Source: a virus. From it: a DNA stretch of 51,673 bases. Below, in pieces: positions 14,712-33,918 of this stretch. The notes below the pieces were generated by a model that made no database searches, was not told the origin of the DNA, and was given only the letters and a program-made list of their open reading frames with translations. The DNA lies in IMG/VR virus record IMGVR_UViG_3300050196_000040. One strand, written 5' to 3'. The position numbers were made by a program, and so were the translations under genes. The first letter of the stretch is position 1, and each line of letters begins with the position of its first letter.

Positions 14712-16916
14712 TTATTTCCCTTTGGAAGGAGGCTTTGATTTGGCAGCCTGTTGCCGTTGTACGGCAGCCATACGTTCTGCATGGGTAAGCTTTTGAGCAT
14801 GTTGCTGTTGAGCGTGTCCTAGCTTTTGACGATGAGCTACCTCATTTTGCATGGCCTGCTGGTTGGCAGTCATACGATCTTGTGCCACTTGCATATTAGA
14901 AGTGTGGATTTGAATTGCTTCTTGCAGAGAGGCCAGCATAGCTTTGCTACGGGCTTCTTGGTCTGCTGCTTGCCCAGCCATAGCTGTTTTAACTTGAGCA
15001 CTATGTGCAGCCAACTGCTCTTTAAACATCATTTCTTGCTGTTTAATTTGAGAGGTTTGTTGAATAGCTTGTACCTTAGCTTGGCTTTCCAATACTTTAG
15101 GATTGGGCTGTTGAGGAATCTGACCAGTTTGTGCAACTTGAGGGTTAAGTAAGTCTTGGTAATTAGGTTGCTCTTGAGCTTCCAAAATACGCAAACCAAC
15201 TTTAACAGGATCAAGAATGCCTAGGGGAAGCAATTCCTGCAAGCCCTGAGCCTTAAGAAGCTTCTCTGTTTGAGAGACAGCAGTGGGATCGGCACCAGGG
15301 CAAATCTTATATTGTTCCTCACTAAAATCATCAGGTCCAACAGTAATACCAATTACTTCTTGGTAGGTTTGAGGATTCATGTAAGTTGCATTAAGGTTAA
15401 AAATCTTAATAAACTCTTCTGCAAGACTATGGTAGATACGCTTATAAACAGCAGTAAATACTTTCATACCTTGCTCAACAGTCGCCATCGTTGTAGTGGC
15501 AGGAGTATTCTGCCCCGGCATTTTACCCACGAAAATCTCTGCGATGGAGGCCAATTCTTTCCCGGAAGTAATCAAACTACCCATGAGTTGGAAAAGGACA
15601 TTAGAGGGTTCTTTGGATGGCAAAGGAACAATCTGTTGTTTCAGATCAGTACCTGTGGAGTTAACTGCCTTCCATTCTCCGGGCTGAAACTTTGTTTCGC
15701 CCATGCGGAGTTTTAACCCCTTACCAAGAAACCCAGACTGTAAGTTGTTAAGTGTGCCGCTATCAATAAGCTGGTTAATAAGAGTATTAACGGACTCGTT
15801 AATAGGACCAAGCAAAACCCCGAAACCAAGATCGTAAAAACTACCATCAGGATTGGGAATAAAGCCAAACTTAGTAAAATACTCAATGGGTTCAATCTTT
15901 GTTAGTTTACCTTCGTCATCATGAAACATTGTCTCATCATCAAATCGTGCAGCAATACGAAGCACTTTTGCAGACTCTAGATGAAATGTAACTATGTATG
16001 GTTCTGGATAATCATCGTCATCCAAATCAAGGTAGGTGTGTTGTTCAATAATTGTGTAAGGCGTTGTCTTATCTTGAGCAGGTTGGCCCGGCTTACCAAT
16101 AGGAGTAGGAGCGGTGCCAAGTTCCTCATCCATAAACACACCAGACATTTGGCGTTCTTTAAGAACGCGTGGACTCATTTCAATGATTTGAGAGACGCGT
16201 TCAGCTTCTTTGAGCGACTTGGCCCAGTAGTTAACTACCAGATTCTTAGGAAGAATTACATCAGATGCAATCTTCTTTTTAATTGAGTCCCAATAAGTTT
16301 TCTTAAATATGGTTCCAACAACTGGAAGCATAATAAGCAACTTATCCATCCCCTCTTCCCAACCAGTTAGCTCATGCATAACTTGGTAGGACATATAGGT
16401 AGAGACACGATCTGCCAAATCGTACTTGGAGCCATCAGGGTCTTTACCAATAACTCGACTCTTTACAATCTTACCATCACTAGGAACAAGGCTAGGATAG
16501 GCACGAGCAGCAAACTGCATAGCAGCAGTTGTAAGCAAAGGATATTTAACATTAGAAGCACGAGCCCAAGGAAATGTTTTATCCTCCCGGAATTGAGTGG
16601 CTAGTTTAGTCCAGTTATCCATCTGTTTTTCCCACTCAGAGCGAGATTGCATATCAAGGTCAAACCCCTCTTTAGCATCTGCACCGATGGTGTGAAGTTT
16701 TTCTTTATCCAACTTCTCTGCTATGTTAACTGACTCAAGAATGGAGCGTAGGGTGTCTTCTTTAGCTTCAGGAGCCTCTTGTACATCTTCAGGCTGCATA
16801 CCCATACCACCGGGCAATGCCTGCGGTTGTGAGGGCATTTGAGACATGTCAGTACCCTGTGTAGGTTGATTGCCCTGCATAGCTTGACCCGGCATCCCTG
16901 GATTCGTATTCATCAT
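14712..16916 (-). CDS. Portal protein
   Basis: 734 aa immediately after the large terminase; Gln-rich N- and C-terminal extensions; AGGAAG RBS before ATG 16916 (alternative ATG 16847 just after the terL stop). Confidence 0.75.
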   Translation of the reverse strand: MMNTNPGMPGQAMQGNQPTQGTDMSQMPSQPQALPGGMGMQPEDVQEAPEAKEDTLRSILESVNIAEKLDKEKLHTIGADAKEGFDLDMQSRSEWEKQMDNWTKLATQFREDKTFPWARASNVKYPLLTTAAMQFAARAYPSLVPSDGKIVKSRVIGKDPDGSKYDLADRVSTYMSYQVMHELTGWEEGMDKLLIMLPVVGTIFKKTYWDSIKKKIASDVILPKNLVVNYWAKSLKEAERVSQIIEMSPRVLKERQMSGVFMDEELGTAPTPIGKPGQPAQDKTTPYTIIEQHTYLDLDDDDYPEPYIVTFHLESAKVLRIAARFDDETMFHDDEGKLTKIEPIEYFTKFGFIPNPDGSFYDLGFGVLLGPINESVNTLINQLIDSGTLNNLQSGFLGKGLKLRMGETKFQPGEWKAVNSTGTDLKQQIVPLPSKEPSNVLFQLMGSLITSGKELASIAEIFVGKMPGQNTPATTTMATVEQGMKVFTAVYKRIYHSLAEEFIKIFNLNATYMNPQTYQEVIGITVGPDDFSEEQYKICPGADPTAVSQTEKLLKAQGLQELLPLGILDPVKVGLRILEAQEQPNYQDLLNPQVAQTGQIPQQPNPKVLESQAKVQAIQQTSQIKQQEMMFKEQLAAHSAQVKTAMAGQAADQEARSKAMLASLQEAIQIHTSNMQVAQDRMTANQQAMQNEVAHRQKLGHAQQQHAQKLTHAERMAAVQRQQAAKSKPPSKGK

Positions 16917-18369
16917 CTTCTTCTACTTCCTTTTGGGTTGGTCCTTCGACCATCTTATCAACGATGAGGCCGAGATAGGAGAGAGCATCCACTTGGTCAT
17001 CGTGTTTACCACGGCCAAACATAACTGCCTCTTCTTGGAGGGTTTGAAACCACTCCGCTTGTTTGTCAAATTTAACTCCCCCCATCCGCATACGTGCCTG
17101 AATGGAACGTGCCCTGGCTTTTTTATCTGTGGAGGGTGATAAGGGCAAAATGGACATATAGCAGTTCTCTTGCATCATACGCTCACGTAGGAAAGGGCCA
17201 ATTGATTTCTCAATCTGGCCCTTCTCCATTGACATACACATTGGATCGTATGTTCTTTGCAAAGACAAAATGGTTTCCACAATTTCTTGTGAGTCCATTT
17301 TATCTCTAATTACGTTTTGGATATATAGCATCCCAGTTTCTGCAACAGCGCCGACCACAAAGACGGAATAGTCTGAGTACTCTGCTGTGGAGACTGCGAG
17401 GTCAGAGCCAATGTAGATGGTGTGACGCTTTTTCCACTCAGGGTTATCAAACGCAACTCTGTCTTGGTCTGTAAAGTCTGTAAAATCTGAACGGCGGAAG
17501 TAAGCAAGGGTTTCATCCAGTGGGTAGTTGAGATATTCTTGGGAGTAGACATCTGCAAGGCCATCTTCTGTCATTTGGTGACGTAAAAGCCTAAAATGCT
17601 CTGCTGTGTAAAGCTCTTTCCAGAGAATATGCTTAAAATCGTGACTATGAGCCCGATATTTAACAGAATACCACGCTAATTTAGCTGGTTGTTTCTTGGA
17701 ATAGGTCTTTAGGTCTTCTTCAACAGTGTATTTGTCCCCTTTACGAGGCATAACACCTTCCAGCAAAGAGTCATTATGCAGAATAGTCCCCACATATCGA
17801 ACAATCCCATTCATACTCCTACAAGGAAGAAGAGAAGCATTAAACCAACGCTTGAATTTCATACGACGTTCTTTGTTTAGAACAATCTCGTCATTCTCAA
17901 GGTCATCACAGATGATTAAATCAGGACGTTTGTTGTCCCATTTAAGTCCTCGAACCTTCTGCTCAGCCCCTTTAGCTGATATGCGAAACATATACCCATC
18001 AGTACAGAGACAAATCATATCGTCTTCTGAGTCTTTAATGAGCTTATCAATTTTAAACAAAGAGCGTAAAGGCTCATTGTCTGTTAATTCTTTTTTAATA
18101 TCTCCCAAGAACTGGGTGGCTTGGGTTATGGTGTCTGATACAATGAGAACATAAGAGCGTTCTCGAAAGCAGACACTAGCGAGTGTACAGGTTTGGGTTA
18201 TAGCAGTTGTTTTGGCGTGCCTACGGGGGGCAGCAATAGCAACTTGAGGGTGGGGAAAACAGAACATCTTCCACCACTCCATATGGCACTCAGGAGACTG
18301 CACAGCACCATCAAAAGCTTTTTGTAAAAGGGAAGAACTAAATCCTCGTATGATTTCTGCCGTGAGCAT
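16849..18369 (-). CDS. terL: Terminase large subunit
   Basis: AAPRRHAKTT (Walker A-like), DLIICDDLEND (Walker B), GTILHNDSLL; C-terminal nuclease-like half. Confidence 0.9.
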   Translation of the reverse strand: MLTAEIIRGFSSSLLQKAFDGAVQSPECHMEWWKMFCFPHPQVAIAAPRRHAKTTAITQTCTLASVCFRERSYVLIVSDTITQATQFLGDIKKELTDNEPLRSLFKIDKLIKDSEDDMICLCTDGYMFRISAKGAEQKVRGLKWDNKRPDLIICDDLENDEIVLNKERRMKFKRWFNASLLPCRSMNGIVRYVGTILHNDSLLEGVMPRKGDKYTVEEDLKTYSKKQPAKLAWYSVKYRAHSHDFKHILWKELYTAEHFRLLRHQMTEDGLADVYSQEYLNYPLDETLAYFRRSDFTDFTDQDRVAFDNPEWKKRHTIYIGSDLAVSTAEYSDYSVFVVGAVAETGMLYIQNVIRDKMDSQEIVETILSLQRTYDPMCMSMEKGQIEKSIGPFLRERMMQENCYMSILPLSPSTDKKARARSIQARMRMGGVKFDKQAEWFQTLQEEAVMFGRGKHDDQVDALSYLGLIVDKMVEGPTQKEVEEDDEYESRDAGSSYAGQSTYTGY

Positions 18370-18377
18370 CTGTGCCT

Positions 18378-18665
18378 TTATTTATTATATTTCTTAGCTA
18401 CACGCTGTTTGCGATGAGCTTCTTTTTCTAAATTGGTTCGTTCAGTTACAACACGAAGATTGTCGGAAGCGTTGCTTCCTCCGCGTACAAGCTCAACTTT
18501 ATGGTCAACTTGCTTCCCATCCCCCTTGTGAACCAACCCCTTCTTCATCATCCTCGAACGAGCTGAGTTCCTCTCCGCCCTCTGCTTCACCCTGTCCGGG
18601 TGCGTCGTCTTCTCCCAACGTGCCTCAGCGGCATAGTTGCGCTTCCCGTTCTTCATAAATGGCAT
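18378..18665 (-). CDS. HNH endonuclease associated with terminase
   Basis: VDHKVELVRGGSNASDNLRVVTERTNLEKEAH; start moved to ATG 18665 behind a GGAGGAG RBS; lies between the terS and terL genes. Confidence 0.7.
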   Translation of the reverse strand: MPFMKNGKRNYAAEARWEKTTHPDRVKQRAERNSARSRMMKKGLVHKGDGKQVDHKVELVRGGSNASDNLRVVTERTNLEKEAHRKQRVAKKYNK

Positions 18666-19239
18666 TGTGATTCTCCTCCATTCGGAATTCAATATCTTGA
18701 GGGGAATCACCCTCCGAAATAACGTCGATAGTTTCGACTTGTTTAACTGGTTGCTGCCATTTGGCAAATTCTAGGGCCAAAGCCTTAAGCTGGTCTTCAA
18801 CAGACGTTTGGGTGGTTTCAGTTCTAGCTGTAGCATTACCCCGCAAGAGTTCTCTCTTGGTAATCATGTCCACTGTCACCTTAGCTGCATCTTTCATGTT
18901 AACCTGTTTACGGATGACTTGCCCAGTCTTTTGGTTGTAAACAAACTCACCATTCTCCAAGCGATCCATTACAGCATCTAGGCTCTTATCCACGATTTTG
19001 GTAAGCTTGCCGTCCATCTGCAAATTCTCAGTGGCCCTCACTTGCGACTCAATTTCAGCCCACCAAGGCTGTCCCTTCCAAGCTCGTAGGAGCTGATGGG
19101 GAATCTTAGTAACTGAGCTAACCAAGGCCATATTGCCCAAGACCAAATACTGCGACACCGCAGCTATACGAGCCTCCTGGCTCCACGTCGTGTTAGGTTT
19201 GTGCTTCTTAGCAAGGTTGGTTATTTTCAAAGGCTGCAT
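18625..19239 (-). CDS. terS: Terminase small subunit (putative)
   Basis: 204 aa; first gene of the late arm; HTH-like N-terminus (AAVSQYLVLGNMALVSSVTKIPHQLLRAW); by position. Confidence 0.5.
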   Translation of the reverse strand: MQPLKITNLAKKHKPNTTWSQEARIAAVSQYLVLGNMALVSSVTKIPHQLLRAWKGQPWWAEIESQVRATENLQMDGKLTKIVDKSLDAVMDRLENGEFVYNQKTGQVIRKQVNMKDAAKVTVDMITKRELLRGNATARTETTQTSVEDQLKALALEFAKWQQPVKQVETIDVISEGDSPQDIEFRMEENHNAIYEEREAQLCR

Positions 19240-19249
19240 AATCTCTTTC

Positions 19250-19279
19250 TACAAGAATAGTTCTATTTTTTACAAGAAT
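19250..19279. repeat. Two TACAAGAAT direct repeats 21 bp apart in the terS leader
   Basis: tacaagaat at 19250-19258 and 19271-19279; CTACAAG (19249) / CTTGTAG (19297) inverted pair. Confidence 0.6.
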
Positions 19280-19344
19280 GTCTATGGACAAGCAAGCTTG
19301 TAGTTAACTATGGTTAAGTACGAGATTGCTTGGCCTATACTAAT

Positions 19345-19373
19345 ATTATACCATACTTTTGTCTATTTGTCAA
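19345..19373 (-). promoter_or_regulatory. Consensus sigma70-type promoter for the minus-strand (late) arm
   Basis: Minus strand reads TTGACA-17 nt-TATAAT with TGn directly upstream of the -10 (TTGACAaatagacaaaagtaTGgTATAAT). Confidence 0.7.
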
Positions 19374-19432
19374 TAGACAAATGAATATATTTACATAAAA
19401 TGCAAATATATTTGCTTTCTGCAAGAAAGCTA

Positions 19433-19461
19433 TTGACAATTCGACAGAATTGTGATACCCT
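19433..19461 (+). promoter_or_regulatory. Sigma70-type promoter firing rightward into the AT-rich hairpin region
   Basis: TTGACA (19433-38), 17-nt spacer containing TGa, -10 TACCCT (TAnnnT). Confidence 0.5.
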
Positions 19462-19495
19462 ATAATATATATTATATATTAATATAATATTATTA

Positions 19496-19537
19496 ATATA
19501 GAATAATATTATCTTTGTTGATAATATTATTCTATAT
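19496..19537. repeat. Perfect 18-bp AT-rich hairpin with C-TTTGTT-G loop (hairpin A)
   Basis: atatAGAATAATATTATC TTTGTT GATAATATTATTCTatat; every stem position pairs. Confidence 0.9.
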
Positions 19538-19572
19538 AATTAATATTTAATTTATTTAATATTAATAATATA

Positions 19573-19604
19573 AGAGAATAATATCTTTGTTGATATTATT
19601 CTCT
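19573..19604. repeat. Perfect 13-bp hairpin with C-TTTGTT-G loop (hairpin B)
   Basis: AGAGAATAATATC TTTGTT GATATTATTCTCT; exact reverse complement occurs at 33729..33760. Confidence 0.9.
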
Positions 19605-20002
19605 ATAGGTATTTAATATTAAAATAATAAAAGAGAAAGAAAATAGAATTATCACTAATGTTCTAATTCTAAAGAAAGAGAAAGGGGTACACTACGTGTA
19701 AGTGAGCGATAGCGAACGACATAACAAAGGGCCTAGAAGGCCTTTAAACAGCCCTACAAACGTCGTACGTAGTACTCCTAAGGGGTATGTAGCCAAGTGT
19801 AGTAATAATCGCTTGTAGAGCGTTTAAATAAGCCTACCCCATATACGTCTATTTTATTTAAAAAATATAAAATTTAGCAAGGAGCCTTACTGAATTATTC
19901 CACCCCGTAGATTTTCCCCCCTACCCCCTTTAATTATTATAATGAGTGTGCTTAATAAATAGGCATTTAGTCTAAACCATTATATTCAACCACCTACACA
20001 CC

Positions 20003-20243
20003 TATGCTGTGCTCACATTTTGATAGCATAGATACAATACCCATACTGGTAAGGGTATATACTTATAGGGGTATGAGTATATACACCCATGAGTATGTAA
20101 GGCTATATCACAAGCATAGAATGGGCTAATATGCAATAGGGGTTTGTATCTATTTGAATTAGAGTATGTTCTCTAATAAACATTCAATATGGTCGTGTTT
20201 AGAACAGAACTAGTCGCATTTATGCTGTGCCTGTTTTATAGCA
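20003..20243 (+). repeat. Direct repeat pair TATGCTGTGC..TTTT(G)ATAGCA in the non-coding control region
   Basis: tatgctgtgctcacattttgatagca (20003) and tatgctgtgcctgttttatagca (20221). Confidence 0.6.
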
Positions 20244-20411
20244 GGTTCCTAATAGAGTTTGTCCAGCGAACAGGCTTTACCGCTAGGTGCACCGAGCGAT
20301 CCCTTATAGGGTGACAGAGTTAGCGCCTAGGCCGTGTGGGAGTTAGGGGAAGACTGGCAAGCATGCACATATCCCAAGGCATGCACCTATTAATTCTTTT
20401 AAGGGGGTTAT

Positions 20412-20588
20412 ATGTCCGCTCAAGTAGTCCTGTATTTCAAGTCCGATTGTGAAGCTAGTGCTATATGGCAAGCCAAGCAAATCAATGCCATGTTTGCTAA
20501 ACGGGGTCATACTAATCCGGTAGTGCATGTTGTCCATACATATCAGGGATGGACTGTGCAAGAGATAGGATGTGTACTGCCTTTATAG
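20412..20588 (+). CDS. Hypothetical early protein (58 aa), not in ORF track
   Basis: AAGGGGG RBS 5 nt before the ATG; MSAQVVLYFKSDCEAS..; palindrome variant at 20390 immediately upstream; the antisense track ORF 20343..20561 is less likely. Confidence 0.5.
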   Translation: MSAQVVLYFKSDCEASAIWQAKQINAMFAKRGHTNPVVHVVHTYQGWTVQEIGCVLPL

Positions 20589-20712
20589 CTTTACACATTC
20601 TTTACAATGGCGTAAGTTTCATGTAAGGAAAGCATGTGTGTAATGTAAGTGTCAGCGGGAATTGTCCCATTAATTGTTTTAACTGTGCACCTAGGTGCGA
20701 AAGGGTATATAT

Positions 20713-21345
20713 ATGACCGATATAGCAGAGATGACCATCATTCAATCTGGTAAGGGCAAAGCGCCTACTAATAGCGACAAGGCTAAAGGCGCTGCACTCG
20801 CTGTAGTTTGTATTAAGTATGGCGTTAAGCGCATGGAACAAGAGGAAAAGGAAGCCGGAAAGCTGGGTGCCATTGTCAAGTCTATCAATGATTTGGCTCG
20901 GGATGGTCATGCGGAATTCCGTGCTGAATTGACAAAAGAGCTAAACCTTATTAAAGAACTTCGCCAGTCTACAGGGGTAACTAAAGAGCAAACCGCCGGC
21001 TATTCTTTCACGTCTTTTGAAACACTGTGCAGCAATTGGAAAACCATTAGCGCAGCTATTGAGATGGGTTATAGCGTCTTGAATGACGATATGGCACAAA
21101 AGCCTTGGAGTCTGGTGCTTGCTGAATCGGTGCAAATGAAACATGCTCACGCGTCCAATGCAGCCGAAAATGGTACACCAACCAAGCGCAAAGTGGGACG
21201 TAAATCCACGCCTATGATTGATAAGGCTATAAAGGCCATGAATGATCTGGATACAATCGAAGATATGATGGCCTTGTATAAGGCGCTGGAGGCCCGTATG
21301 ATTGCAGCTAAAGCCATTGAGGCTCGGGAAACTGCACCAGTCTAA
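20713..21345 (+). CDS. Hypothetical early protein
   Basis: Track ORF 20695..21345; ATG 20713 preferred; helical and charged; followed by two hairpins. Confidence 0.6.
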   Translation: MTDIAEMTIIQSGKGKAPTNSDKAKGAALAVVCIKYGVKRMEQEEKEAGKLGAIVKSINDLARDGHAEFRAELTKELNLIKELRQSTGVTKEQTAGYSFTSFETLCSNWKTISAAIEMGYSVLNDDMAQKPWSLVLAESVQMKHAHASNAAENGTPTKRKVGRKSTPMIDKAIKAMNDLDTIEDMMALYKALEARMIAAKAIEARETAPV

Positions 21346-25215: not shown

Positions 25216-25532
25216 ATGACTGTCTAGTTACAGTGGTAGATGTTGACCAAGGTGTGCGTGGTGAGTGGCGAGGCATACACAATTATGCTCGTGGTATTGC
25301 CACACATGAGGACTTTGATGGAGAGATTGAAGGTCTTTCCAATCAAGAGGTGCTGCGTCGTGTCAAGATGTGGAGTTGTCTTGAGAAAGATGTGCCCATT
25401 GTTGTAGAGCAAATGAGCCAAGAGTGGGTTGGCTATGAGATTAAAGTTTTTAAATTGAACCAAGTTTCTGTGCGTGTTCCGGGTGAGCTACGCAAGAAAC
25501 AACTAACCAAAGATGGGGTACTACCTGAATGA
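25212..25532 (+). CDS. Hypothetical protein, first gene of the amidoligase cassette
   Basis: ATGA overlaps at both ends. Confidence 0.55.
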   Translation: MNDCLVTVVDVDQGVRGEWRGIHNYARGIATHEDFDGEIEGLSNQEVLRRVKMWSCLEKDVPIVVEQMSQEWVGYEIKVFKLNQVSVRVPGELRKKQLTKDGVLPE

Positions 25533-26185
25533 AAAAGATTCTTTATACTATTATGTTTGGTGGCGACTGCTATCCATTCACTGACTTGGCTCAACAGATT
25601 ATTACCGTGCGTAACGTCGATCAAATCGTGGAGAAAGATGCAGTGATGGTTGTATGGGGTGGGGCTGATATTAGTCCTGCTTTGTATGGTCATAAGCAAT
25701 CCCTTACTACGCATTGCTACAAGCAACGTGATGATATTGAGTGGGCTGCTATGAAGAAGGCTGCACAGCTAGGTATCCCCATCATTGGTGTATGCCGTGG
25801 AGCACAGATGCTTTGTGCCTTGGCTGGTGGTTTCTTGATTCAGGACACTACTGACCATGCCGGACGTGGGCATCAAGTGACAACAAAAGAGGGTCGGTCA
25901 TTTGCTGTAAATTCTATCCACCATCAGATGATGGCTGGTTTGGAGAATACAGAGCATGAGCTTCTTGCATGGGTTGATGTTCCCCGTAGTCGGCATTACA
26001 TCTATAAAGATGATGTAAAATACCATACCCCAGAGGGCTTTAAAGAACCAGAGATGGTTTATTTCCCGAAAGTCAAAGGATATGCCATTCAATGGCATCC
26101 CGAAGGAATGTCGGAAGATTGTGAAGCAACCAAGTACATCATGGAGCAGTATTATGCCCGAGAAAACCTCTCCGTTGGAGTTTAA
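25529..26185 (+). CDS. Class I glutamine amidotransferase-fold thiol peptidase (peptidase C26 / PuuD-like gamma-glutamyl hydrolase)
   Basis: IIGVCRGAQML nucleophile elbow and AIQWHPE His-Glu motif. Confidence 0.75.
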   Translation: MKKILYTIMFGGDCYPFTDLAQQIITVRNVDQIVEKDAVMVVWGGADISPALYGHKQSLTTHCYKQRDDIEWAAMKKAAQLGIPIIGVCRGAQMLCALAGGFLIQDTTDHAGRGHQVTTKEGRSFAVNSIHHQMMAGLENTEHELLAWVDVPRSRHYIYKDDVKYHTPEGFKEPEMVYFPKVKGYAIQWHPEGMSEDCEATKYIMEQYYARENLSVGV

Positions 26186-26513
26186 AACTCTATTAAATAG
26201 TTTAACTGGTGTTGTATACGAGCAGACAAATGATAAGCCAAAGACGATTCCAGCAGGGTATGGGTCAACAGCTTGTGAAATGTCCCGTTTGTGTGAATGC
26301 TGTGGGGCTAGTGCTTATGGCTATCGGACATTTAATTCTGTGTATGCCACAAACATAGTTCCAGAAAAAGAGGTTGGAAGGTGGGATACGAAACAAATCA
26401 TAGTGTCTGGACCAATAGGTAAGGAAGACCTCCCGGTTCTCCCAACTGGAAGGAATTTCATGCGACTTAAGGGAGACGAGAAAGACTTCCTTATTACATG
26501 GGAGACTCAATGA
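26154..26513 (+). CDS. Hypothetical Cys-rich protein
   Basis: Track ORF 26082..26513; ATG 26154 preferred (GGAG upstream); CEMSRLCECCG. Confidence 0.45.
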   Translation: MPEKTSPLEFKTLLNSLTGVVYEQTNDKPKTIPAGYGSTACEMSRLCECCGASAYGYRTFNSVYATNIVPEKEVGRWDTKQIIVSGPIGKEDLPVLPTGRNFMRLKGDEKDFLITWETQ

Positions 26514-26827
26514 TATATAGTGTTTACATTGCATCATTCATGGGTGCTTATGCTAATGAAAGGCCCCAGAATGTGGCAGCTCTCATCAAGGCTGCACCAG
26601 AGGATGCCTCGTTTATCTTCATCCCTACAATTAGGCAGATAGAGGAGTTTAAAAATTGGCTGACTAAGTGGAAGTTAAATAATTTAATTCAATATGCTAG
26701 TCCAGAGCCATTTATTAATGGAAGTCACCCAACAGAGGGACCAAGGTTGTATATCTATGTGCTTTCTAAATCTGAAATAAAGGAGAGTGGTTATGTCACA
26801 GCAACTAACATTAGAGGACAAGCGTAA
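26510..26827 (+). CDS. Hypothetical protein, paralogue of 27092..27493
   Basis: ATGA-coupled start MIYS..; shares SFIFIPT..Q.E.F..W..KWKL..NGSH with its paralogue. Confidence 0.55.
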   Translation: MIYSVYIASFMGAYANERPQNVAALIKAAPEDASFIFIPTIRQIEEFKNWLTKWKLNNLIQYASPEPFINGSHPTEGPRLYIYVLSKSEIKESGYVTATNIRGQA

Positions 26828-27095
26828 GATTCTCCCCACCATAGGAGTACAACCAATGCTTGAGGGAGGTCCAGCTAATGGACTACGCTCCCTACAGGCT
26901 GGCTTTGCTGGATGCTGTGGGTCTATTTATATCTCAGAGGAGAGCAAGGAACAGGAGTGGGTTAAGGAGTACGATAAACGTATTTGGTGGCAGAGGGGAG
27001 TGGGCATTCCAGAGGCTCTTAAAGAAAGAGGTAAGGAGAGTCTACTTATTCCTGATGTGTCAGGTAATGTACTTGTTCAATGGGATGATGTATGA
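26793..27095 (+). CDS. Hypothetical protein
   Basis: ATG 26793, 7 nt after AGGAG. Confidence 0.5.
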   Translation: MSQQLTLEDKRKILPTIGVQPMLEGGPANGLRSLQAGFAGCCGSIYISEESKEQEWVKEYDKRIWWQRGVGIPEALKERGKESLLIPDVSGNVLVQWDDV

Positions 27096-27493
27096 TATAC
27101 TCAATTACTTTTCAGGCATTGCAAGAGCGGTACACTGTACCCACATACTATTCTAACAGTATGTATGATAGGAACTCAGAGTATAAATATATTCGGGATG
27201 TGCGTCCTTGGATGGGTAAGGTGCTTAATAGCCTTGAGATAGTAGCAGACTACATTAAGGAGAGTGAGGAGGATAGTTTTCTATTCATCATCACCAATAC
27301 ACAGGTGGAGGCGTTTGATAAGTGGATTAAGAAATACAAACTGGAAGAGTTTGTAACTTACCGTATGGAACGTCCCGTAACTAACGGAAATCATCTTCAT
27401 AACGGACGCAACCTTTTGTTCGTGGCGATGTGTTCCAAGATGCATGTATGGCGTGATATGTTTGATGAAACAATTGAATGGAGTGATGTATGA
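27092..27493 (+). CDS. Hypothetical protein, paralogue of 26510..26827
   Basis: ATGA-coupled MIYS.. start; SFLFIITNTQVEAFDKWIKKYKL..NGNH. Confidence 0.55.
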   Translation: MIYSITFQALQERYTVPTYYSNSMYDRNSEYKYIRDVRPWMGKVLNSLEIVADYIKESEEDSFLFIITNTQVEAFDKWIKKYKLEEFVTYRMERPVTNGNHLHNGRNLLFVAMCSKMHVWRDMFDETIEWSDV

Positions 27494-28278
27494 AAATTAT
27501 GCTTGGCTGTGACCCGGAGGCTTTCCTCATGGATGTGAATGGACAACTCAAATCGTCCATTGGATTGATTGGTGGAAGCAAGGAACTTCCTCGCCCCCTT
27601 CCCTTGGGTGAGGGTTATGCTGTTCAAGAGGATAATGTGGCCTTAGAGTTTAACATTCCTCCAGCAGAAGGTCGGTCACAATTCGTGGATAGCATTCGTG
27701 GTACATTAAACTTTTTAACTGAAATGGTTCAAGGTGAATACGGATTTACAATATCTGAAATCTCTGCTGCATCGTTCCCAGAGGCAGAACTCTCAACTCC
27801 TGAGGCTCATATCTTCGGATGTGACCCTGACTTCAACGCTTGGACGAAAGAGGTTAATCCAAAACCTGCGGCAGCAGATAAGGCTCTGCGATCATGCGGT
27901 GGGCATGTTCATATTGGATTCGAGAAAGGGTCAATTGAAGAGGTAGAATTGATTCGCCATATGGACTTGCATCTTGCTGTGCCTGCTGTGCTGATGGACA
28001 AGGGTTTGCTGCGTAAGGAGTTGTATGGGAAGGCAGGAGCTTTCCGGGATAAATCTTATGGTGCTGAGTATCGTACTCTCAGTAACTTCTGGATTTTCAA
28101 CAATCGTTTGATTGAATGGGTATGGGACAATACAAGTCGTGCCGTTGCTGCTGCGGAATCGCGGCTGGTTATTAGCCAAGAGGACGAAGCCGACATTATT
28201 AAAGCCATCAACACAAACGACGTTGCAATTGCAGAGAAGCTAATTAAAAAGTTTAACTTGGATGTTGTATATGTCTAA
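27490..28278 (+). CDS. GCS/glutamine-synthetase-like COOH-NH2 ligase (phage phiEco32-like type 2 family)
   Basis: MLGCDPEAFLMD N-terminus, EDNVALEFN, CGGHVHIG, GAEYRTLSNFW match my recollection of the phage COOH-NH2 ligase family. Confidence 0.65.
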   Translation: MKIMLGCDPEAFLMDVNGQLKSSIGLIGGSKELPRPLPLGEGYAVQEDNVALEFNIPPAEGRSQFVDSIRGTLNFLTEMVQGEYGFTISEISAASFPEAELSTPEAHIFGCDPDFNAWTKEVNPKPAAADKALRSCGGHVHIGFEKGSIEEVELIRHMDLHLAVPAVLMDKGLLRKELYGKAGAFRDKSYGAEYRTLSNFWIFNNRLIEWVWDNTSRAVAAAESRLVISQEDEADIIKAINTNDVAIAEKLIKKFNLDVVYV

Positions 28279-28441
28279 AGAGAGACTTATGGAGCTTATT
28301 CAAAAATTTGCAGAGCAGTCCAGCTTCTATGTTTGTGAAACAACCATCCATTACTGGCATGTGGAGGAAGCAATCGAGCAGTATATCAAGCAATGGCGAC
28401 AAGTAGAAGTAACCAAGGTTATGGGGAATACTAATGTTTGA
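28271..28441 (+). CDS. Hypothetical protein (56 aa), not in ORF track
   Basis: Overlaps both neighbours by a few nt; fills the gap between 28278 and 28434. Confidence 0.4.
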   Translation: MSKERLMELIQKFAEQSSFYVCETTIHYWHVEEAIEQYIKQWRQVEVTKVMGNTNV

Positions 28442-29069
28442 AAAATTTATGTCTGTAGAAGCGAATGATTTTCGCCAACGCTACCAAGGTACTTATGGAT
28501 ACTTTACCCACAAAGGTAAACGTACCCTGACACGCTTGGACAAAATTCAAGCTGACGGTCGGTCATCTTTTGTGGAATTCTCAGATCGTGATGGTTTGAA
28601 GTATCTTCTTCATCCTGATAGCGAAGATAATGATACTGGCTTTGAGTTCCTTCCTCCAAAGTCCGCCTACTTTAATACTAAAGAGGGTGTTCCACTCTTG
28701 GTGACTCGTGTTCCTGCTCGACAATATCTGCGTGGTATTTGTGACCGCAATACTCAGATTACTGATATGCGAAACAATCTACGAGAAGTGGGGTTTGAGA
28801 CACTCACTAAATTGTTTGAGGATAAGACAGATGCTCAGAGAGCTATGGCTGCTGCAATTGTGTCTGATTCCTCTGGGCGTGGGGTGGCTATTAGTCCTTC
28901 GTTTGCTGTGTCTTTTGCACTTGGTTCAATTAAATGTTTTAATCAAACCATTGGGCAGTGTCAATTTGATAAGGGATTGTTCACAATCTCCCTTGATAGT
29001 CAAGAGTTGTGGGGACAGGAAATCACGGATGCTTTCCGTCGTGCTAAGTTGAACATGATTTTGAAATAA
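28434..29069 (+). CDS. Hypothetical protein of the amidoligase cassette
   Basis: 211-aa ORF; no recognisable motif. Confidence 0.55.
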   Translation: MFEKFMSVEANDFRQRYQGTYGYFTHKGKRTLTRLDKIQADGRSSFVEFSDRDGLKYLLHPDSEDNDTGFEFLPPKSAYFNTKEGVPLLVTRVPARQYLRGICDRNTQITDMRNNLREVGFETLTKLFEDKTDAQRAMAAAIVSDSSGRGVAISPSFAVSFALGSIKCFNQTIGQCQFDKGLFTISLDSQELWGQEITDAFRRAKLNMILK

Positions 29070-29078
29070 GGAGTAGAT

Positions 29079-30191
29079 ATGAATCCAGTAGATGTATGGG
29101 GTGTTGGTAAGCCTAATGTAAAGAAGTACATTAAAGTTACCGAAGGATGTGTCTCTCCTGATTTGGTTATTGGTTTGGAGCTTGAAACTGAAAATGTCAA
29201 CACCAGTGCCGATGCTGCAAGCAAGATGGCAAAACCTTACAACTTTGTTGTAGAGAATGATGGTAGTTTGCGTGGAGTGGCATATGAGTATATCAGTCTC
29301 CCTATGCGTACTGAACATTGCCTGTCTGCTCTTACAGACTTCCTTGCAATAAACAAGTTTACTGATGCCAACTACACAGACCGCTGCTCTGTTCATGTAC
29401 ACGTAAATTGTACAGATATGCAGATGGAGCAAATCTCTTCCCTTGCTTTGCTATACACTGTGATGGAAGATATTATGTTCGAGTTTGTTGGTGGTCATCG
29501 TGATAGTAACATCTACTGCATCCCTTGGAACCAGTGTCGTGCCCACCTTGACTTGGTGAACAAGTTTCTTGGCGACCCTAACACTGTGCTCAAGCGTTGG
29601 AACAAGTATACTGCATTGAACATGCTGCCTCTTGCCAAGCAGGGTACAGTAGAGTTCCGCCAGATGCACGGTACAGCAGATATGAAGAAGCTAGGTGTGT
29701 GGATTAACTTGATTGGCTCTTTGTTTAAGTGGGCTAAGGCTTATGAGTTAAAAGTTTTAATCAGCGAGTTGAAGGAACTTAATTCCAACTCCCACTATGA
29801 GGCATTCTTTAATAAGATTGTCTCAGGCTTGCTTCCTTACAACGAAGTCTATCGTGAGAAGCTGGAGCAAGGGGTTATCTTTGCTAAATATAGCTTGGTG
29901 AGTATGGAGTCCAAACGTACTAAGCCCTCAGCTAAAGTTGCAGCAGCTACGGCAGCAGTACCTGATTGGTTGAATGTTGCCTTTGCAGAGCCTGCTATCC
30001 GGGTACGTCGTCCTGAAATTAATGCTGCTGCTCAACGGATTGATGCAGAATTAAATGCTATGCGTCAACGTCAAGAAGTAGCAGAAATGCTTCGTAATGG
30101 AGCTATGCAAGCCCAGCCTGTGGCTGCTGCTGGAAACTTGTGGGGTGTGGCCCCTAATGAAGTTCGTGTTAATGTAGAAGGAGAGTTTTAA
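29079..30191 (+). CDS. Amidoligase (Amidoligase_2-like, glutamine-synthetase fold)
   Basis: IGLELETEN, DGSLRG.AYEYISLP, CSVHVHVN, TVEFRQMHGT motifs; Ala-rich C-terminal tail. Confidence 0.7.
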   Translation: MNPVDVWGVGKPNVKKYIKVTEGCVSPDLVIGLELETENVNTSADAASKMAKPYNFVVENDGSLRGVAYEYISLPMRTEHCLSALTDFLAINKFTDANYTDRCSVHVHVNCTDMQMEQISSLALLYTVMEDIMFEFVGGHRDSNIYCIPWNQCRAHLDLVNKFLGDPNTVLKRWNKYTALNMLPLAKQGTVEFRQMHGTADMKKLGVWINLIGSLFKWAKAYELKVLISELKELNSNSHYEAFFNKIVSGLLPYNEVYREKLEQGVIFAKYSLVSMESKRTKPSAKVAAATAAVPDWLNVAFAEPAIRVRRPEINAAAQRIDAELNAMRQRQEVAEMLRNGAMQAQPVAAAGNLWGVAPNEVRVNVEGEF

Positions 30192-30192
30192 T

Positions 30193-31560
30193 ATGTGTGG
30201 ACTTGTCGCAATTGTTACAAAGAATAGCCATGGCTTTACTAAGGAACAAGTAGATGCCTTTGATAATCTCCTGTTTATTGACGCCTTGCGCGGCATGGAC
30301 TCTACTGGTGTGTTTGTCGTGGACAAAGATGGTAGTATGGACTTGGCTAAGGAAGCTACAGCTTCTTATGACTATCGCCAAGAGGAGGCATATAAAGACC
30401 TATGCAAGAAGGCTTTCCAAACAGGACGGGCTATGGTGGGCCATAATCGTGCAGCTACCAAAGGGGCCATCACTGATGCTAATGCACATCCTTTTGTGGT
30501 AGATGATCGCATCACCTTGTGCCATAATGGTACACTATGGGGCGATTGGTCTAAGCTCACAGATGCTAAGGTTGATGTGGATAGCAATGCCATTGCCCAT
30601 AAAATCCATGAGTGTGATGATGATGTTGAGAAAGCATTGCAGCAAGTTAACGGAGCATATGCCCTCATTTGGCATGACTTCAAGAACAACACACTCAACT
30701 TTGTCCGTAACAACCAGCGTCCCCTTCATTATGTAGAGACAACTAATGGATGGATTTGGGCATCTGAGGCTAACATGATTGAGTGGATTCTTGCACGACA
30801 CTCATTCAAAGCACAGTCTAAGGTGGAGATGCTTAATGCTGGTACTCTTGTTACTTATGACTTCACCAACAACTCTTGGAAGCTAGATCATAAAGATATT
30901 GAGTTGGAGGCTCCTAAGCCTGCTGTTGTTACACAACATACAACATACCCCAATCATCCATATGCTAATGGCTACAGCTACTCAGGAGGTCGTTACATGG
31001 ACGCTCAATGGGAAGCAGAGGATGATGACGGCGTAGTATTTGGTGGTAAGCCTGTGTGTGAGATTCCACAACATATGTCAGGTATGCAGCGTAAGCTGGC
31101 TGACTCTATGGAACAGAACACTCGCATTGAACGTGCTAAGATGACTGGCCGCACTATCTCCAATGAGAATCGTTTGGCTGCTCAATATAAGTTTGACATT
31201 CCCTCGATTACATTTGCAGAAAACTCTGAAAAGGTTGCCTCAGATAATGATTGGGTGTTGGCTACTTGTATTGACTCTGATACTGTCAAGCCTAGCGATG
31301 GTACTTATGGCTACTTCATCTATGCCAAGCTGCACAAAGACCCCAACTATATGGTCAAGTGCTTTCTTCCTCCTTCGACAAGTGAAATGGATATTCTAGA
31401 CTGGTGTCTCAATGGTCAGGAAATTGAGTTCCATGTCATCAGTCGTCAATGGCGTGCTTACAATGACGCTGCACACGGTCAGGGTTTTGCTATGCTCAAC
31501 TGTGACCTATATCGTTCCCCCCTATCCGCTTTGGATAAAAAACTTGAGGCTCTACTCTAA
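30193..31560 (+). CDS. Class II (Ntn) glutamine amidotransferase-like protein with unknown 230-aa C-terminal domain
   Basis: MCGLVAIV (Cys2 nucleophile), RGMDSTG, GHNRAAT, HPF, CHNGTL pattern of GATase-2 domains. Confidence 0.75.
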   Translation: MCGLVAIVTKNSHGFTKEQVDAFDNLLFIDALRGMDSTGVFVVDKDGSMDLAKEATASYDYRQEEAYKDLCKKAFQTGRAMVGHNRAATKGAITDANAHPFVVDDRITLCHNGTLWGDWSKLTDAKVDVDSNAIAHKIHECDDDVEKALQQVNGAYALIWHDFKNNTLNFVRNNQRPLHYVETTNGWIWASEANMIEWILARHSFKAQSKVEMLNAGTLVTYDFTNNSWKLDHKDIELEAPKPAVVTQHTTYPNHPYANGYSYSGGRYMDAQWEAEDDDGVVFGGKPVCEIPQHMSGMQRKLADSMEQNTRIERAKMTGRTISNENRLAAQYKFDIPSITFAENSEKVASDNDWVLATCIDSDTVKPSDGTYGYFIYAKLHKDPNYMVKCFLPPSTSEMDILDWCLNGQEIEFHVISRQWRAYNDAAHGQGFAMLNCDLYRSPLSALDKKLEALL

Positions 31561-32276
31561 TGGCTAAACTCGTTCTCGTTCCCCATAACATGGGTTCTCG
31601 TTCTGCTAAAGAACTTGCTATTGCACTCTCCCACAAGCTGGGCTATAAGGTGTATCGTGTTGCCCCTCAACGTGTCCGTGGTCGGTCATCCTTTCAGTTG
31701 CAAGGTGGCACAGACAAACTTACGCAATTAAATCTTTTTACTCAACACAATGTTACATGCCCTGAATACACTACCAATCGTGATGTGGCTGCTGGTTGGA
31801 TTACTGCTGATAATTCTACTGTCGTATGTCGTACATTGCTACGTTCGTCGGAAGGCAAAGGAATTGTTGTCGCAGATAGTGTGGAGCAGTTGGTCCGCGC
31901 CCCTCTTTATACCAAGTACGTCCCAAAGAAGGCAGAGTACCGAGTGCATGTCCTCGATGGAGAAGTCATCGGAGTCCAAATGAAAAAGAAACGGAAAGGA
32001 TTTGAAGATGAACGTAATACTAAGATTCGTAATCTTGCTAATGGTTATGTCTTTTGCCGTGAAGGTATTGTGGAACCCGCTGGCTTGCGTGACTTGGCGA
32101 CAAAGGCAACGAATGCTCTTGGTTATCGTCTTGGTGCCGTGGACATTGCCCACAACGTGAAGAAAGAAAAACTTGTCTGTCTCGAAGTTAATGCCTGCCC
32201 CGGAATGCAGGGACAAACTCTTGAGGACTACTCCGATTGTATCTCCTTTGACCACATTGTGAAGGGAATTCGATAA
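31560..32276 (+). CDS. ATP-grasp ligase (RimK-like)
   Basis: SSEGKGIVV, EYRVHVLDGEVIG, CLEVNACPGM; TAATG coupling at both ends. Confidence 0.7.
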   Translation: MAKLVLVPHNMGSRSAKELAIALSHKLGYKVYRVAPQRVRGRSSFQLQGGTDKLTQLNLFTQHNVTCPEYTTNRDVAAGWITADNSTVVCRTLLRSSEGKGIVVADSVEQLVRAPLYTKYVPKKAEYRVHVLDGEVIGVQMKKKRKGFEDERNTKIRNLANGYVFCREGIVEPAGLRDLATKATNALGYRLGAVDIAHNVKKEKLVCLEVNACPGMQGQTLEDYSDCISFDHIVKGIR

Positions 32277-32506
32277 TGCGTTGCTATTGCTGCCAGCGTT
32301 TGCTGAATGATTTTGAGTCTACTCGTAAGAGTAAAACTACTGGAGAGTATCTAGATATGTGTAATGCATGTGTTGCATCTGTCTCAGATCAACTAGAGGT
32401 AATTGATCGCACTGACTTTAACGAAGGAGATGTTCCAGACGAGGAGATTGAATTTGACGACACGTTTGCAGACGATAACAATCTTTATGGAGATGATAAT
32501 GAATAA
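32276..32506 (+). CDS. Small zinc-ribbon protein with acidic tail ending in Glu
   Basis: CYCC..CNAC cysteines; C-terminus DEEIEFDDTFADDNNLYGDDNE. Confidence 0.6.
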   Translation: MRCYCCQRLLNDFESTRKSKTTGEYLDMCNACVASVSDQLEVIDRTDFNEGDVPDEEIEFDDTFADDNNLYGDDNE

Positions 32507-33231
32507 TGTCCAAATTCTTACATCATGAGCAGTGTCCTAGATGTGCTGCTAACGGCTCTGATCGCAGGGGGAATAATCTTGGCGTGTGGGCTGATGGCGC
32601 TTGCTATTGCTTCTCGTGTGGTTACAGAGTTGGAGCAACTTACCGACAATTAAAACTTTTAAATGAGGAGAATGTAAATGATAAAGAAAAAGCTGTGCTC
32701 CCTCGTGATTTCTCAAGAGATATTCCAGCAGAATATTGGCAATGGCTCCTCCAGTATTCCATCCCCTATTCCTACTGGCAAACCTATTGCGGCTATTCTG
32801 AGAAAGACAAGCGACTTGTATTCACTGTCGGCAATCCCACAATGTTCTCCATCGGCAGGAGTCTCGATAAGTCTGTGGGAACAAGTAAATGGAAGGTCTA
32901 TGGAGATAAATCTTCTTACGTTGAAGTCATCAACGACAAAATATCTGGACAAGTTGTTCTCGTTGAAGACCTTATATCCGCCCACAAAATTGGACTAGCA
33001 GGATTCACTGCGATTCCTTTGTTTGGTACCAGTATAGGAGATATACACATTAAAAAGCTACAAGCTCTAAAACGCCCTGTAAGCCTCTGGTTGGATGCTG
33101 ACCAGTACTCGCTACTAGCTCGTAAGATCGGACGCCTACAGAGCCTTGTAGGGGCCTCTGTGAGGCATATAACAACTAGACTGGACCCCAAGGGCTACTC
33201 CTCCATAGAAATTAAGGAAATATTGACATGA
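32506..33231 (+). CDS. DNA primase (zinc ribbon + TOPRIM)
   Basis: CPRCAANGSD..CYCFSCGY zinc ribbon; VVLVEDLISAHK and LWLDADQ TOPRIM-like acidic motifs. Confidence 0.75.
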   Translation: MSKFLHHEQCPRCAANGSDRRGNNLGVWADGACYCFSCGYRVGATYRQLKLLNEENVNDKEKAVLPRDFSRDIPAEYWQWLLQYSIPYSYWQTYCGYSEKDKRLVFTVGNPTMFSIGRSLDKSVGTSKWKVYGDKSSYVEVINDKISGQVVLVEDLISAHKIGLAGFTAIPLFGTSIGDIHIKKLQALKRPVSLWLDADQYSLLARKIGRLQSLVGASVRHITTRLDPKGYSSIEIKEILT

Positions 33232-33491: not shown

Positions 33492-33658
33492 AAGTAACAT
33501 GGACGTTTACAAAAACTTACACAAAAGAGGAATGGGACACATTGCCAGTTAGTGAAAGTAATGACCTAATTAAGATAGGTTACCTACAAATAATGGATGA
33601 ATGGGAGAATTCTGTAGGTTTTGACGATCTCTCTCTCTCCTGCTCTATTGACAAGTAA
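33485..33658 (+). CDS. Hypothetical protein (57 aa), not in ORF track
   Basis: ATG overlaps the upstream stop; its 3-prime end carries the -35 of the 33648 promoter. Confidence 0.4.
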   Translation: MVEVTWTFTKTYTKEEWDTLPVSESNDLIKIGYLQIMDEWENSVGFDDLSLSCSIDK

Positions 33659-33676
33659 CAGAATTTATGTTAAACT
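33648..33676 (+). promoter_or_regulatory. Sigma70-type promoter with extended -10
   Basis: TTGACA-17 nt-TAAACT with TGt immediately upstream of the -10. Confidence 0.55.
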
Positions 33677-33728
33677 AGAATATATATTATATAATATATA
33701 TATTAAATAAATATATATATATATATAT

Positions 33729-33760
33729 AGAGAATAATATCAACAAAGATATTATTCTCT
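33729..33760. repeat. Hairpin B-prime, exact reverse complement of 19573..19604
   Basis: AGAGAATAATATC AACAAA GATATTATTCTCT. Confidence 0.9.
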
Positions 33761-33766
33761 TATATA

Positions 33767-33798
33767 ACAAATAAATTACTTTGTTGTAATTTATTTGT
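33767..33798. repeat. Hairpin C, 13-bp perfect stem with the same C-TTTGTT-G loop
   Basis: ACAAATAAATTAC TTTGTT GTAATTTATTTGT. Confidence 0.9.
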
Positions 33799-33918
33799 AT
33801 AGGAATTAAACTTTTTAATTGGAGAGAAATTATCTACTTACCAGAGAGAGACTTACTTGTACTACTACTGAGTAAGGAATCATTTAACAACTACTACCAA
33901 TACCTAGACCAAGGATAC

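Follow-up and report, generated by a model that had tools for sequence, protein, structure and literature searches.

A sigma-70 promoter, an A/T tract and perfect palindromes recur together at two sites of a tailed-phage genome and in its relatives

The window analysed here is the whole 51,673-nucleotide stretch of IMG/VR virus record IMGVR_UViG_3300050196_000040, a tailed-phage genome that is complete or mostly so according to its open reading frames (ORFs) and profile annotation. At two places in it, named site 1 and site 2, a near-consensus sigma-70 promoter runs into an A/T tract that holds a pair of perfect hairpins, and this three-part unit of promoter, tract and palindrome is the subject of the present analysis. 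The hairpins had already been described in an initial annotation made from the sequence, in which the promoter and A/T tract context of both clusters was missed. The elements of the two sites are the following.

19433-19461, plus strand: promoter P_R, sigma-70-type, with TTGACA at 19433-19438, a 17-nt spacer, TACCCT at 19456-19461, TG at -15/-14 and a predicted start at about 19468.
19462-19650: site-1 A/T tract, almost pure A/T with alternating TA, beginning at the -10 of P_R and holding hairpins A and B.
19496-19537: hairpin A, ATATAGAATAATATTATC / TTTGTT / GATAATATTATTCTATAT, an 18-bp perfect stem with the loop on the plus strand.
19573-19604: hairpin B, AGAGAATAATATC / TTTGTT / GATATTATTCTCT, a 13-bp perfect stem.
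33648-33676, plus strand: promoter P2, sigma-70-type and TG-extended, with TTGACA at 33648-33653, a 17-nt spacer, TAAACT at 33671-33676 and a predicted start at about 33683.
33677-33800: site-2 A/T tract, the 5' leader of the helicase operon, holding hairpins B' and C.
33729-33760: hairpin B', arms identical to those of B, loop AACAAA, a 13-bp perfect stem.
33767-33798: hairpin C, ACAAATAAATTAC / TTTGTT / GTAATTTATTTGT, a 13-bp perfect stem about 30 nt before the helicase start.

By reading the sequence, by an inverted-repeat search and by an exact-stem scan, we found the same four hairpins as in the initial annotation, with perfect stems of 18, 13, 13 and 13 bp at the positions given above. 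Also, we could confirm that B' is the exact reverse complement of B and that the stem of C is unrelated. The identity between B and B' covers about 40 nt, short flanks included, while the wider flanks differ. Three different arm sequences occur within the window, and A and B are paralogous, with GAATAATAT common to both and a 3-nt insertion in A that is mirrored in both arms. In addition, A caps a longer imperfect palindrome whose arms (19461-19513 and 19520-19572) are 79% complementary. The loop TTTGTT or its complement (AACAAA in B') is present in all four hairpins, as had been proposed, and so is the closing C:G pair. The stems were first described as pure A/T, which is not the case: near the stem base there are one further G:C pair in A, two in B, two in B' and one in C, giving a total of 2-3 G:C pairs per stem of 13-18 bp. 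No G-U pairs occur in the hairpins of the window.

Such long stems are rare in shuffled sequences, in support of the view that the hairpins are not random. In 5000 dinucleotide-preserving shuffles of region 19455-19660, the probability of a stem of at least 13 bp was 0.01 and that of a stem of at least 18 bp was 0.0002; for region 33670-33840, shuffled in the same way, the probability of a stem of at least 13 bp was 0.002. Whole-region RNA folds gave z-scores of -5.8 and -7.1, and the individual hairpins reached z-scores of -6.5 to -9.3, with folding energies of -9 to -12 kcal/mol as DNA and -12 to -19 kcal/mol as RNA. CTTTGTTG is found five times in the window compared to 3.2 expected, which is unremarkable alone, and four of these five are the loops of the hairpins. 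The fact that one 8-nt centre is common to the four hairpins adds a further improbability.

P_R and P2 are the only two strong rightward promoters in the scanned 18.5-35 kb of the plus-strand arm, as judged from a promoter scan together with a reading of P_R. Both carry CTATTGACAA and share about the first 17 transcribed bases, AATATATATTATATA, and the hairpin pairs lie 30-130 nt downstream of them. Site 1 opens the rightward early arm, at a distance of about 500 bp from the probable genome end and with the first gene about 800 nt beyond the hairpins, and site 2 separates the primase gene from the helicase gene. No A/T tract follows P_L, the strong promoter that drives the structural arm leftward, which argues that the tract is not a general promoter requirement. 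This promoter (19373 to 19345, minus strand) has a perfect sigma-70 consensus, TTGACA-17-TATAAT with TG, and faces the terminase genes; its -35 is overlapped by a palindrome, TGTCTATT-TGTC-AATAGACA (19360-19379), that looks like an operator.

The approximately 50 ORFs of the window were scanned for gene families with Pfam and PHROG profiles, and related loci used for comparison were labelled L001 to L168. The structural genes are on the minus strand, left of 19.3 kb and right of 43.7 kb, while the plus-strand arm covers 24 kb (20.4-43.7 kb) and contains small unknown early genes, a MazG protein, ribonucleotide reductase and the replication genes. The genes to which we refer below are these.

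14712-16916, minus strand: portal.
16849-18369, minus strand: large terminase.
32506-33231, plus-strand arm: primase, just upstream of the helicase gene.
33829-35085, plus strand: DnaB-family replicative helicase (PHROG/Pfam), N-terminus extended by comparison with L001; the first gene downstream of P2 and site 2.
38075-38791, plus-strand arm: 5'-3' exonuclease.

Small ORFs without a known family are abundant in the window, and among the ORFs scanned with Pfam and PHROG we found no RNA polymerase, recombinase or integrase, HUH nickase/Rep, known antiterminator or replication initiator, the last having been sought by profile searches only. The largest ORF (1471 aa, 44144-48559, minus strand, structural arm) gave neither a PHROG family nor a PDB sequence match. 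The sole cultured relative is the Alcaligenes phage vB_Af_QDWS535, with a portal 54% identical and full synteny. A family-A DNA polymerase is encoded in two ORFs (35082-36272 and 36756-37481) interrupted by an HNH endonuclease gene (36296-36769), and the polymerase of the Alcaligenes phage is likewise in two ORFs, without the HNH insert. The helicase N-terminus IIYLPERDLLVLLLSKES... aligns to MYLPERDLL... of L001, so that the gene start must be a non-canonical ATT (33829) or ATC (33832), about 30 nt past hairpin C; the TTG at 33919 proposed by the ORF lister is too far downstream.

Relatives of the helicase are numerous in IMG/VR (at least 544). Region 19000-21000 had no DNA match among GenBank phages, a metagenome scan with the GATase gene returned no relative above 73% identity with useful flanks, and the early 216-aa protein had no relatives in IMG/VR. 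We found that promoter, A/T tract and palindrome recur together in relatives at two places, namely near the probable genome end and before the helicase gene. First, the unusual -10 of P_R (TGaTACCCT) is kept with a consensus -35 in L022, L024-L026, L028, L029, L094, L096, L101 and L146, and P2 orthologues precede the helicase gene in L001-L003, many of L089-L168 and the Alcaligenes phage. Second, vB_Af_QDWS535 (48% GC) has exactly two large pure-A/T tracts, both syntenic with those of the window and each following TTGAC(A/T)-17-TATAAT, one in the terminase/early divergent region and the other in the primase-helicase gap. Third, related loci totalling about 1.4 Mb contain 162 consensus-promoter matches, of which 22% are followed by at least 26 A/T in 30 positions, compared to 0.5% of background windows. 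The tract length varies widely, from 35 to 190 nt. For 47 tracts of relatives, TA/AT steps account for 70% of the dinucleotide steps and A/(A+T) is 0.55, that is near strand-symmetric. Sequence dominated by TA/AT belongs to the lowest class of duplex stability.

The palindromes recur as well. At site 1, a perfect palindrome containing G/C was found 24-38 nt after the -10 in 7 of the 7 near relatives that cover the site (L021, L024-L026, L028, L029 and L030), with for example ACAAGAATAC-TTAAG-GTATTCTTGT, ACAACAATACC-TTTAG and ACAAACATCC-TTTAG. At site 2, perfect palindromes were found in L001, L090, L148/L149, L168 and L094; those of L090 (AGAGAATTCC-CCTAAA) and L001 (AGAACATATATCC-TATAAG) are orthologous to B', and others are ACAAGAATAC-CTTAA in L148/L149 and ACAAGAACCC-TTTAGG in L168. 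The stems thus vary between lineages while the pairing stays perfect through many compensated differences, which argues that pairing matters. The loops occur in either orientation (B and B' in the window, TTAAG in L021 and CTTAA in L148, TTTAGG in L168 and CCTAAA in L090), making it unlikely that the loop is read on a single strand. Contig 3300045743_000019 has different stems and different loops at site 1 (L029) and at site 2 (L159). The inverted repeats of L159 and L095 overlap promoter elements, so that one arm is not transcribed in full.

From varying stems around a conserved loop, the initial annotation had suggested that a structure is recognised, and it had proposed to search relatives for C-TTTGTT-G loops with covarying stems. 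The first half of that argument stands, since relatives keep compensated stems with unbroken pairing. The second half does not: C-TTTGTT-G was found in no relative, the orthologous loops being TATAAG, CCTAAA, TTAAG and TTTAG. A scan of IMG/VR for WWWWWTATCTTTGTTGATAWWWWW returned 21 loci, all with chance-like stems of 4-7 bp save an unrelated 12-bp hairpin in L070. The TTTGTT motif therefore appears specific to the lineage of the window, and the conserved object is the promoter, A/T tract and palindrome unit rather than the loop.

To distinguish a constraint on DNA from one on RNA, we compared sense and antisense folding of 46 leaders with G-U pairs counted, and observed no asymmetry (Wilcoxon p=0.78). 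Together, the absence of G-U pairs, the lack of strand asymmetry and the loop flips seem to fit a strand-symmetric DNA constraint better than a strand-specific RNA one. The flanks of the least stable duplex class, the exclusion of G/C, the missing tract at P_L and the repeats that overlap the promoter in L159 and L095 also speak for the DNA level. The RNA level is favoured by arms that lie within the predicted transcripts at a regular spacing from the start, by the position of C just ahead of the helicase ribosome-binding site and by the terminator-like hairpins that distant relatives have at this place. The Rfam 15 covariance models gave no hit at gathering score over the whole window and no match at E<=1 in 19300-20450 or 33600-33900, and a tRNA scan gave no hit.

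We tentatively rank first the possibility that the unit is a T7-style, transcription-activated unwinding and initiation site for the T7-like replisome of this phage. This ranking follows from the T7-like replication genes found with no initiator recognisable by profile searches, from the two promoter-A/T units and from the parallel with T7. The strong promoter would let host RNA polymerase carry transcription into the most easily melted DNA of the genome and open it, and the transcript or the opened bubble would offer an entry point for primase, DnaB-family helicase, family-A polymerase and 5'-3' exonuclease. The perfect palindromes might then form hairpins on the displaced strand or, aided by the A/T flanks, cruciforms, and either keep the region open or serve in priming or in loading the helicase. 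Any part of the unit in unwinding, in priming or in replication is what we infer from its anatomy. The origin or primosome-loading idea of the initial annotation is thus viable and, in this modified form, the leading hypothesis.

The closest parallel is found in T7, in which the primary origin includes an AT-rich segment adjacent to the promoter and phiOR faces outward close to the right end of the genome. As in the T7 origins (phi1.1A/1.1B primary, phiOR and phi6.5 secondary), a promoter is followed by an AT-rich segment, and the replisome is also of this kind, combining primase/helicase, family-A polymerase and 5'-3' exonuclease, while no dedicated initiator is recognised. The placement is also similar, with one unit ahead of the DNA-metabolism genes and another near the right genome end that points outward like phiOR. 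The differences are that the promoters here are of the host sigma-70 type, with no phage RNA polymerase found, that the tract by far exceeds its T7 counterpart in purity and length (60-190 nt, about 100% A/T) and is complemented by perfect palindromes, and that initiation is here proposed from the sequence. For the T7 origin, the promoter has been described as an essential element (PMC8373140). Measured against that type of origin, the window has a promoter, host-type and not phage-type, an AT-rich segment adjacent to it downstream, and T7-like replisome genes without an initiator.

Further parallels are the T4 origins oriF (uvsY) and oriG (gene 34), with a promoter followed by a DNA-unwinding element, the ColE1-type R-loop origins with primosome-assembly hairpins, in which hairpins on the displaced strand serve priming or loading as proposed here, and the mitochondrial OriL, in which the stem sequence varies and the structure is kept. 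Unlike in these three, the orientation of the loop varies with respect to the displaced strand, and the present unit is known from its sequence. An inverted repeat in AT-rich flanks has a lower barrier to extrusion under negative supercoiling, and the short-centre perfect repeats in AT-rich, TA-alternating flanks resemble those of C-type cruciform extrusion (the ColE1 inverted repeat) and of (TA)n cruciforms; cruciform extrusion is a physical property and not a biological system, and for this phage it is a proposal.

Several observations weigh against initiation at these sites. First, the units always stand at operon starts and are co-oriented with the genes, which promoter or leader function alone explains. 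Second, the helicase gene of many relatives is preceded by no such unit, and vB_Af_QDWS535 and many other relatives have no long palindrome, so that the palindromes are at most accessory to promoter and A/T tract. Third, RNA:DNA hybrids are weak in pure A/U, making a persistent R-loop less likely than in T4 or ColE1, and because of loop flipping the T-rich loop is not always on the displaced strand. Fourth, the more distant relatives L039, L040, L048 and L050 have, at this very position after P_R, a short terminator-like hairpin with a T-run, which is a feature at the RNA level. Finally, palindromes can be kept perfect in the absence of selection through template-switch correction of quasi-palindromes, and compensated stem changes are for this reason weaker evidence than in an ordinary RNA.

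Instead of acting in DNA, the hairpins could act in the P_R and P2 leaders by directing RNase III cleavage or by affecting mRNA half-life or ribosome access, an explanation that we consider unlikely by itself, if still worth taking seriously; taken together with attenuation, discussed next, a role of the hairpins in the RNA leaders comes close in probability to the origin reading. Relative to the predicted start, both arms are downstream at a fairly regular distance, +20 to +35, in the window and in all near relatives, and hairpin C ends about 30 nt before the ribosome-binding site of the helicase gene, which seems to use a non-canonical ATT/ATC start. The RNA hairpins would be stable (-12 to -19 kcal/mol). 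Moreover, T7 puts RNase III sites directly after promoters, and its sites R0.3, R1.1, R3.8, R4.7, R6.5 and R13 are likewise stem-loops between a promoter and the first gene. However, the T7 sites are imperfect, with internal loops and G/C, while the present stems are perfect, A/U-rich and mostly 13 bp long, without strand bias or wobble pairing. The imperfect duplex that is capped by A, with 53-nt arms that include the 18-bp stem, approaches the length of an RNase III substrate; B, B' and C offer 13 bp each. A leader function is further disfavoured by the absent G-U pairs, by the lack of a sense-strand folding advantage over the 46 leaders, by a loop orientation that is not kept relative to transcription and by the missing Rfam match even at E<=1. 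In the predicted transcripts, 20-30 nt of unpaired A/U at the 5' end precede the hairpins, which would thus give no 5'-end protection, and the first gene of site 1 follows only after about 800 nt. Last, it is difficult to see an RNA-level reason for keeping 60-190 nt entirely free of G/C, and the overlap of the repeat with promoter elements in L159 and L095 also speaks against a leader function.

It is improbable that the hairpins time early and middle expression, either by making host polymerase pause or partly terminate soon after initiation, where the A/U hybrid is weak, or by rendering it resistant to termination in the manner of nut and put sites. What recalls lambda nutL/nutR boxB and HK022 putL/putR is that each genome has two sites, both in leaders transcribed from the main rightward promoters, and that the loop is conserved within the phage, with UUUGUU shared by A, B and C in the RNA sense; also, L039, L040, L048 and L050 have their canonical hairpin and U-run after P_R, and a loose terminator scan flagged B on the minus strand. 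By contrast, the stems are far longer than boxB-type hairpins, B' is inverted, and the two sites of relatives share no hairpins, L029 and L159 of one contig having nothing in common. No boxA was recognised, nor did the profiles recognise an N-, Q- or other antiterminator-like protein, although small unknown ORFs are abundant. A sense-strand U-tract is absent after A, B, B' and C, whose 3' flanks are AATTAATA, ATAGGTAT, TATATAAC and ATAGGAAT, and the scan passed only B, on the minus strand. We therefore agree with the earlier statement that these are not ordinary intrinsic terminators, being GC-poor, without U-tract and located after promoters rather than at operon ends.

We attribute an equally low probability to a neutral origin, in which slippage and template switching in TA-rich, self-complementary tracts generate the palindromes, quasi-palindrome correction preserves their perfect pairing, recombination between arms flips the loops, gene conversion copies them from one tract to the other, and only promoter and tract are functional. 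The highly variable tract length (35-190 nt), the Alcaligenes phage and several others that do without long palindromes, the loop flips and the about 40 nt of B/B' identity amid differing flanks would all be accounted for, and pure-A/T hairpins of 9-11 bp arise by chance in such tracts. Less easily explained are the G/C-containing perfect palindromes at a similar promoter distance in 7/7 near relatives and the rarity of 13-18 bp stems in the shuffles. Furthermore, an identical 8-nt centre on the unrelated stems of C and of A/B needs selection or a very specific conversion.

Even less probable is that a dimeric phage or host protein binds the duplex arms as an operator or roadblock to shut off early and middle transcription. 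The stem ACAAGAATAC is unchanged at site 1 of L021, L025, L026, L028 and L029 and at site 2 of L148/L149, and ACAAGAAT is found at 19251 and 19272, 21 bp apart. In addition, six genomes, namely the window and five near relatives, show an about 7-fold enrichment of ACAAG on one strand within the 260 bp to the left of P_R, and a separate palindrome covers the -35 of P_L. On the other hand, the TTGACAAG form of the -35 contributes part of the ACAAG signal, the window has three different arm sequences, and the AGAATA segments shared by the arms are 7, 16 or 22 nt apart in different hairpins and thus ill-suited to a fixed dimer. A perfect complementarity of 13-18 bp is also more than operators need, and no regulator was identified. 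There is, besides, a small chance that the explanation is something not considered here.

N4-type hairpin promoters, which are known in N4 and had been suggested initially, have 5-7 bp stems and 3-nt loops, and this reading and that of lox/dif-like 13-6-13 recombination sites are largely refuted: inverted arms around an asymmetric 6-bp centre are seen in tyrosine-recombinase core sites and B/B' are inverted copies 14 kb apart, but the stems of 13-18 bp and loops of 6 nt have the wrong geometry for N4, the arms of A, B and C differ, inverting 19.6-33.7 kb would place the early genes antisense to P_R, and no recombinase, integrase or phage RNA polymerase was found in the about 50 ORFs scanned, in agreement with the earlier remark that no N4-type polymerase is encoded, nor did the 1471-aa ORF match PHROG or PDB sequences.

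Other identities were considered for the loop region and rejected. An IHF site, a DnaA box and an HUH-nickase site showed, by eye, only partial matches (TTATCAACA compared to TTATCCACA, and TTGATATTA as in the phiX174 origin) that are probably due to chance, and there is no HUH/Rep gene. A CRISPR-repeat or RNA anti-CRISPR mimic was discarded, the hairpins not being identical direct repeats and their stems being far longer than CRISPR repeat hairpins.

All in all, the unit appears to be set apart from known systems by its host-type promoters, its very pure (TA)n tract, its perfect palindromes and the copying of these palindromes between the two sites in either orientation. We consider it most like the transcription-dependent origins of T7 and T4, or else the promoter-proximal RNase III sites of T7, and anatomy alone does not allow membership in the origin, RNase III or antitermination families to be claimed. 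This anatomy is clean, widespread and, as far as known, undescribed; it is not surprising in kind, and its function is proposed. To our knowledge, the start of replication is poorly known in phages that combine a T7-like replisome with the lack of a phage RNA polymerase. A promoter, (TA)n and palindrome unit found twice per genome, in hundreds of environmental phages and one cultured Alcaligenes phage, offers a concrete candidate for initiation, and if it acts at the RNA level instead, it would stand for a widespread type of leader in early and middle phage transcripts. A more far-reaching version, which we regard as rather unlikely, is that the clade, large (at least 544 helicase relatives) and nearly all uncultured, has an undescribed bipartite origin made of a host sigma-70 promoter that fires into a (TA)n unwinding tract, with the palindromes folding on the displaced strand as OriL-like initiation hairpins and being copied as cassettes, in either orientation, between the two units.

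Downstream of site 1, region 19840-19975 is sequence-conserved across the clade. It contains a C-rich motif, TTTTCCCCCCTACCCCC (19912-19928), and an upstream block (AAAAATATAAAATTTAG..TTACG), the conservation of which extends to the Alcaligenes phage and to relatives with only 36% terminase identity, and the distance from P_R down to the motif is always 220-470 nt. About 40 nt beyond the motif, at homologous GGTGTC-like positions, lie the ends of three independent contigs (L021, L024 and L026), and L028, L043, L050 and L062 end within about 100 nt. This clustering of contig ends suggests a physical genome end, either cos or the edge of a repeat, near 19965-19975, in which case the window would be a permuted assembly. 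The HNH gene (18378-18767) beside the terminase fits a cos phage; as a caveat, four long contigs (L094, L096, L098 and L145) are cut near the convergent junction instead. Between the putative end and the first early gene, about 430 nt (19976-20410) are non-coding, with GGGTAT-type repeats and inverted repeats at 20037-20097, and no strong promoter was found there. If the genome end is true, the early genes may need P_R to read across joined ends, or P_R may lie in a terminal repeat.

RNAalifold found no consensus RNA structure in the conserved non-coding block from site 1 to the C-rich motif. A small hairpin (19881-19901) surrounds the conserved TTACG loop region about 25 nt before the motif, and its stem seems by eye to covary, with GGA/TCC in the window, GTGG/CCAC in L021, TGGG/CCCA in L026 and L028, and GCAT/ATGC in L029.

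Just past hairpin B, an element at 19628-19687 consists of purine mirror repeats, AAAAGAGAAAGAAAA ... AAAGAAAGAGAAAGGGG, that flank an inverted repeat (TAGAATTA at 19644-19651 and TAATTCTA at 19664-19671), and it has triplex-forming (H-DNA) symmetry. L021, L026, L043, L039, L048 and L050 carry a pyrimidine version on the same strand, TTCTTTCTTTT ... TTTTCTTTCTT, indicating that the element is inverted in the window. The pyrimidine element of the relatives resembles a Rho-loading site or, with the hairpin, a terminator. The terminator-like element of L039, L040, L048 and L050 is about 15 nt after the P_R equivalent, for example AAGAAGTT-GAAA-AACTTCTT followed by TTTTCTTTCTT, and an upstream CTTCTT could pair with the left arm of its hairpin, which would give an attenuator-like layout.

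Elsewhere in the early arm, a cluster at 25529-32276 encodes a peptidase C26/GATase, a phiEco32-like COOH-NH2 ligase, an amidoligase, a class-II glutamine amidotransferase and an ATP-grasp protein. This amidotransferase/ligase cluster is found in the Alcaligenes phage too and resembles those tied to DNA base hypermodification. Should thymidines be modified in this phage, the modification would be densest in the A/T tracts. Finally, to the left of P_L, ACAAGAAT at 19251 and 19272 equals the left arm of the relatives' hairpin ACAAGAATAC and is followed by ACAAGCAAGCTTGT at 19288-19301; together with the ACAAG enrichment, these repeats (19251-19301) may be an iteron or a regulator site.

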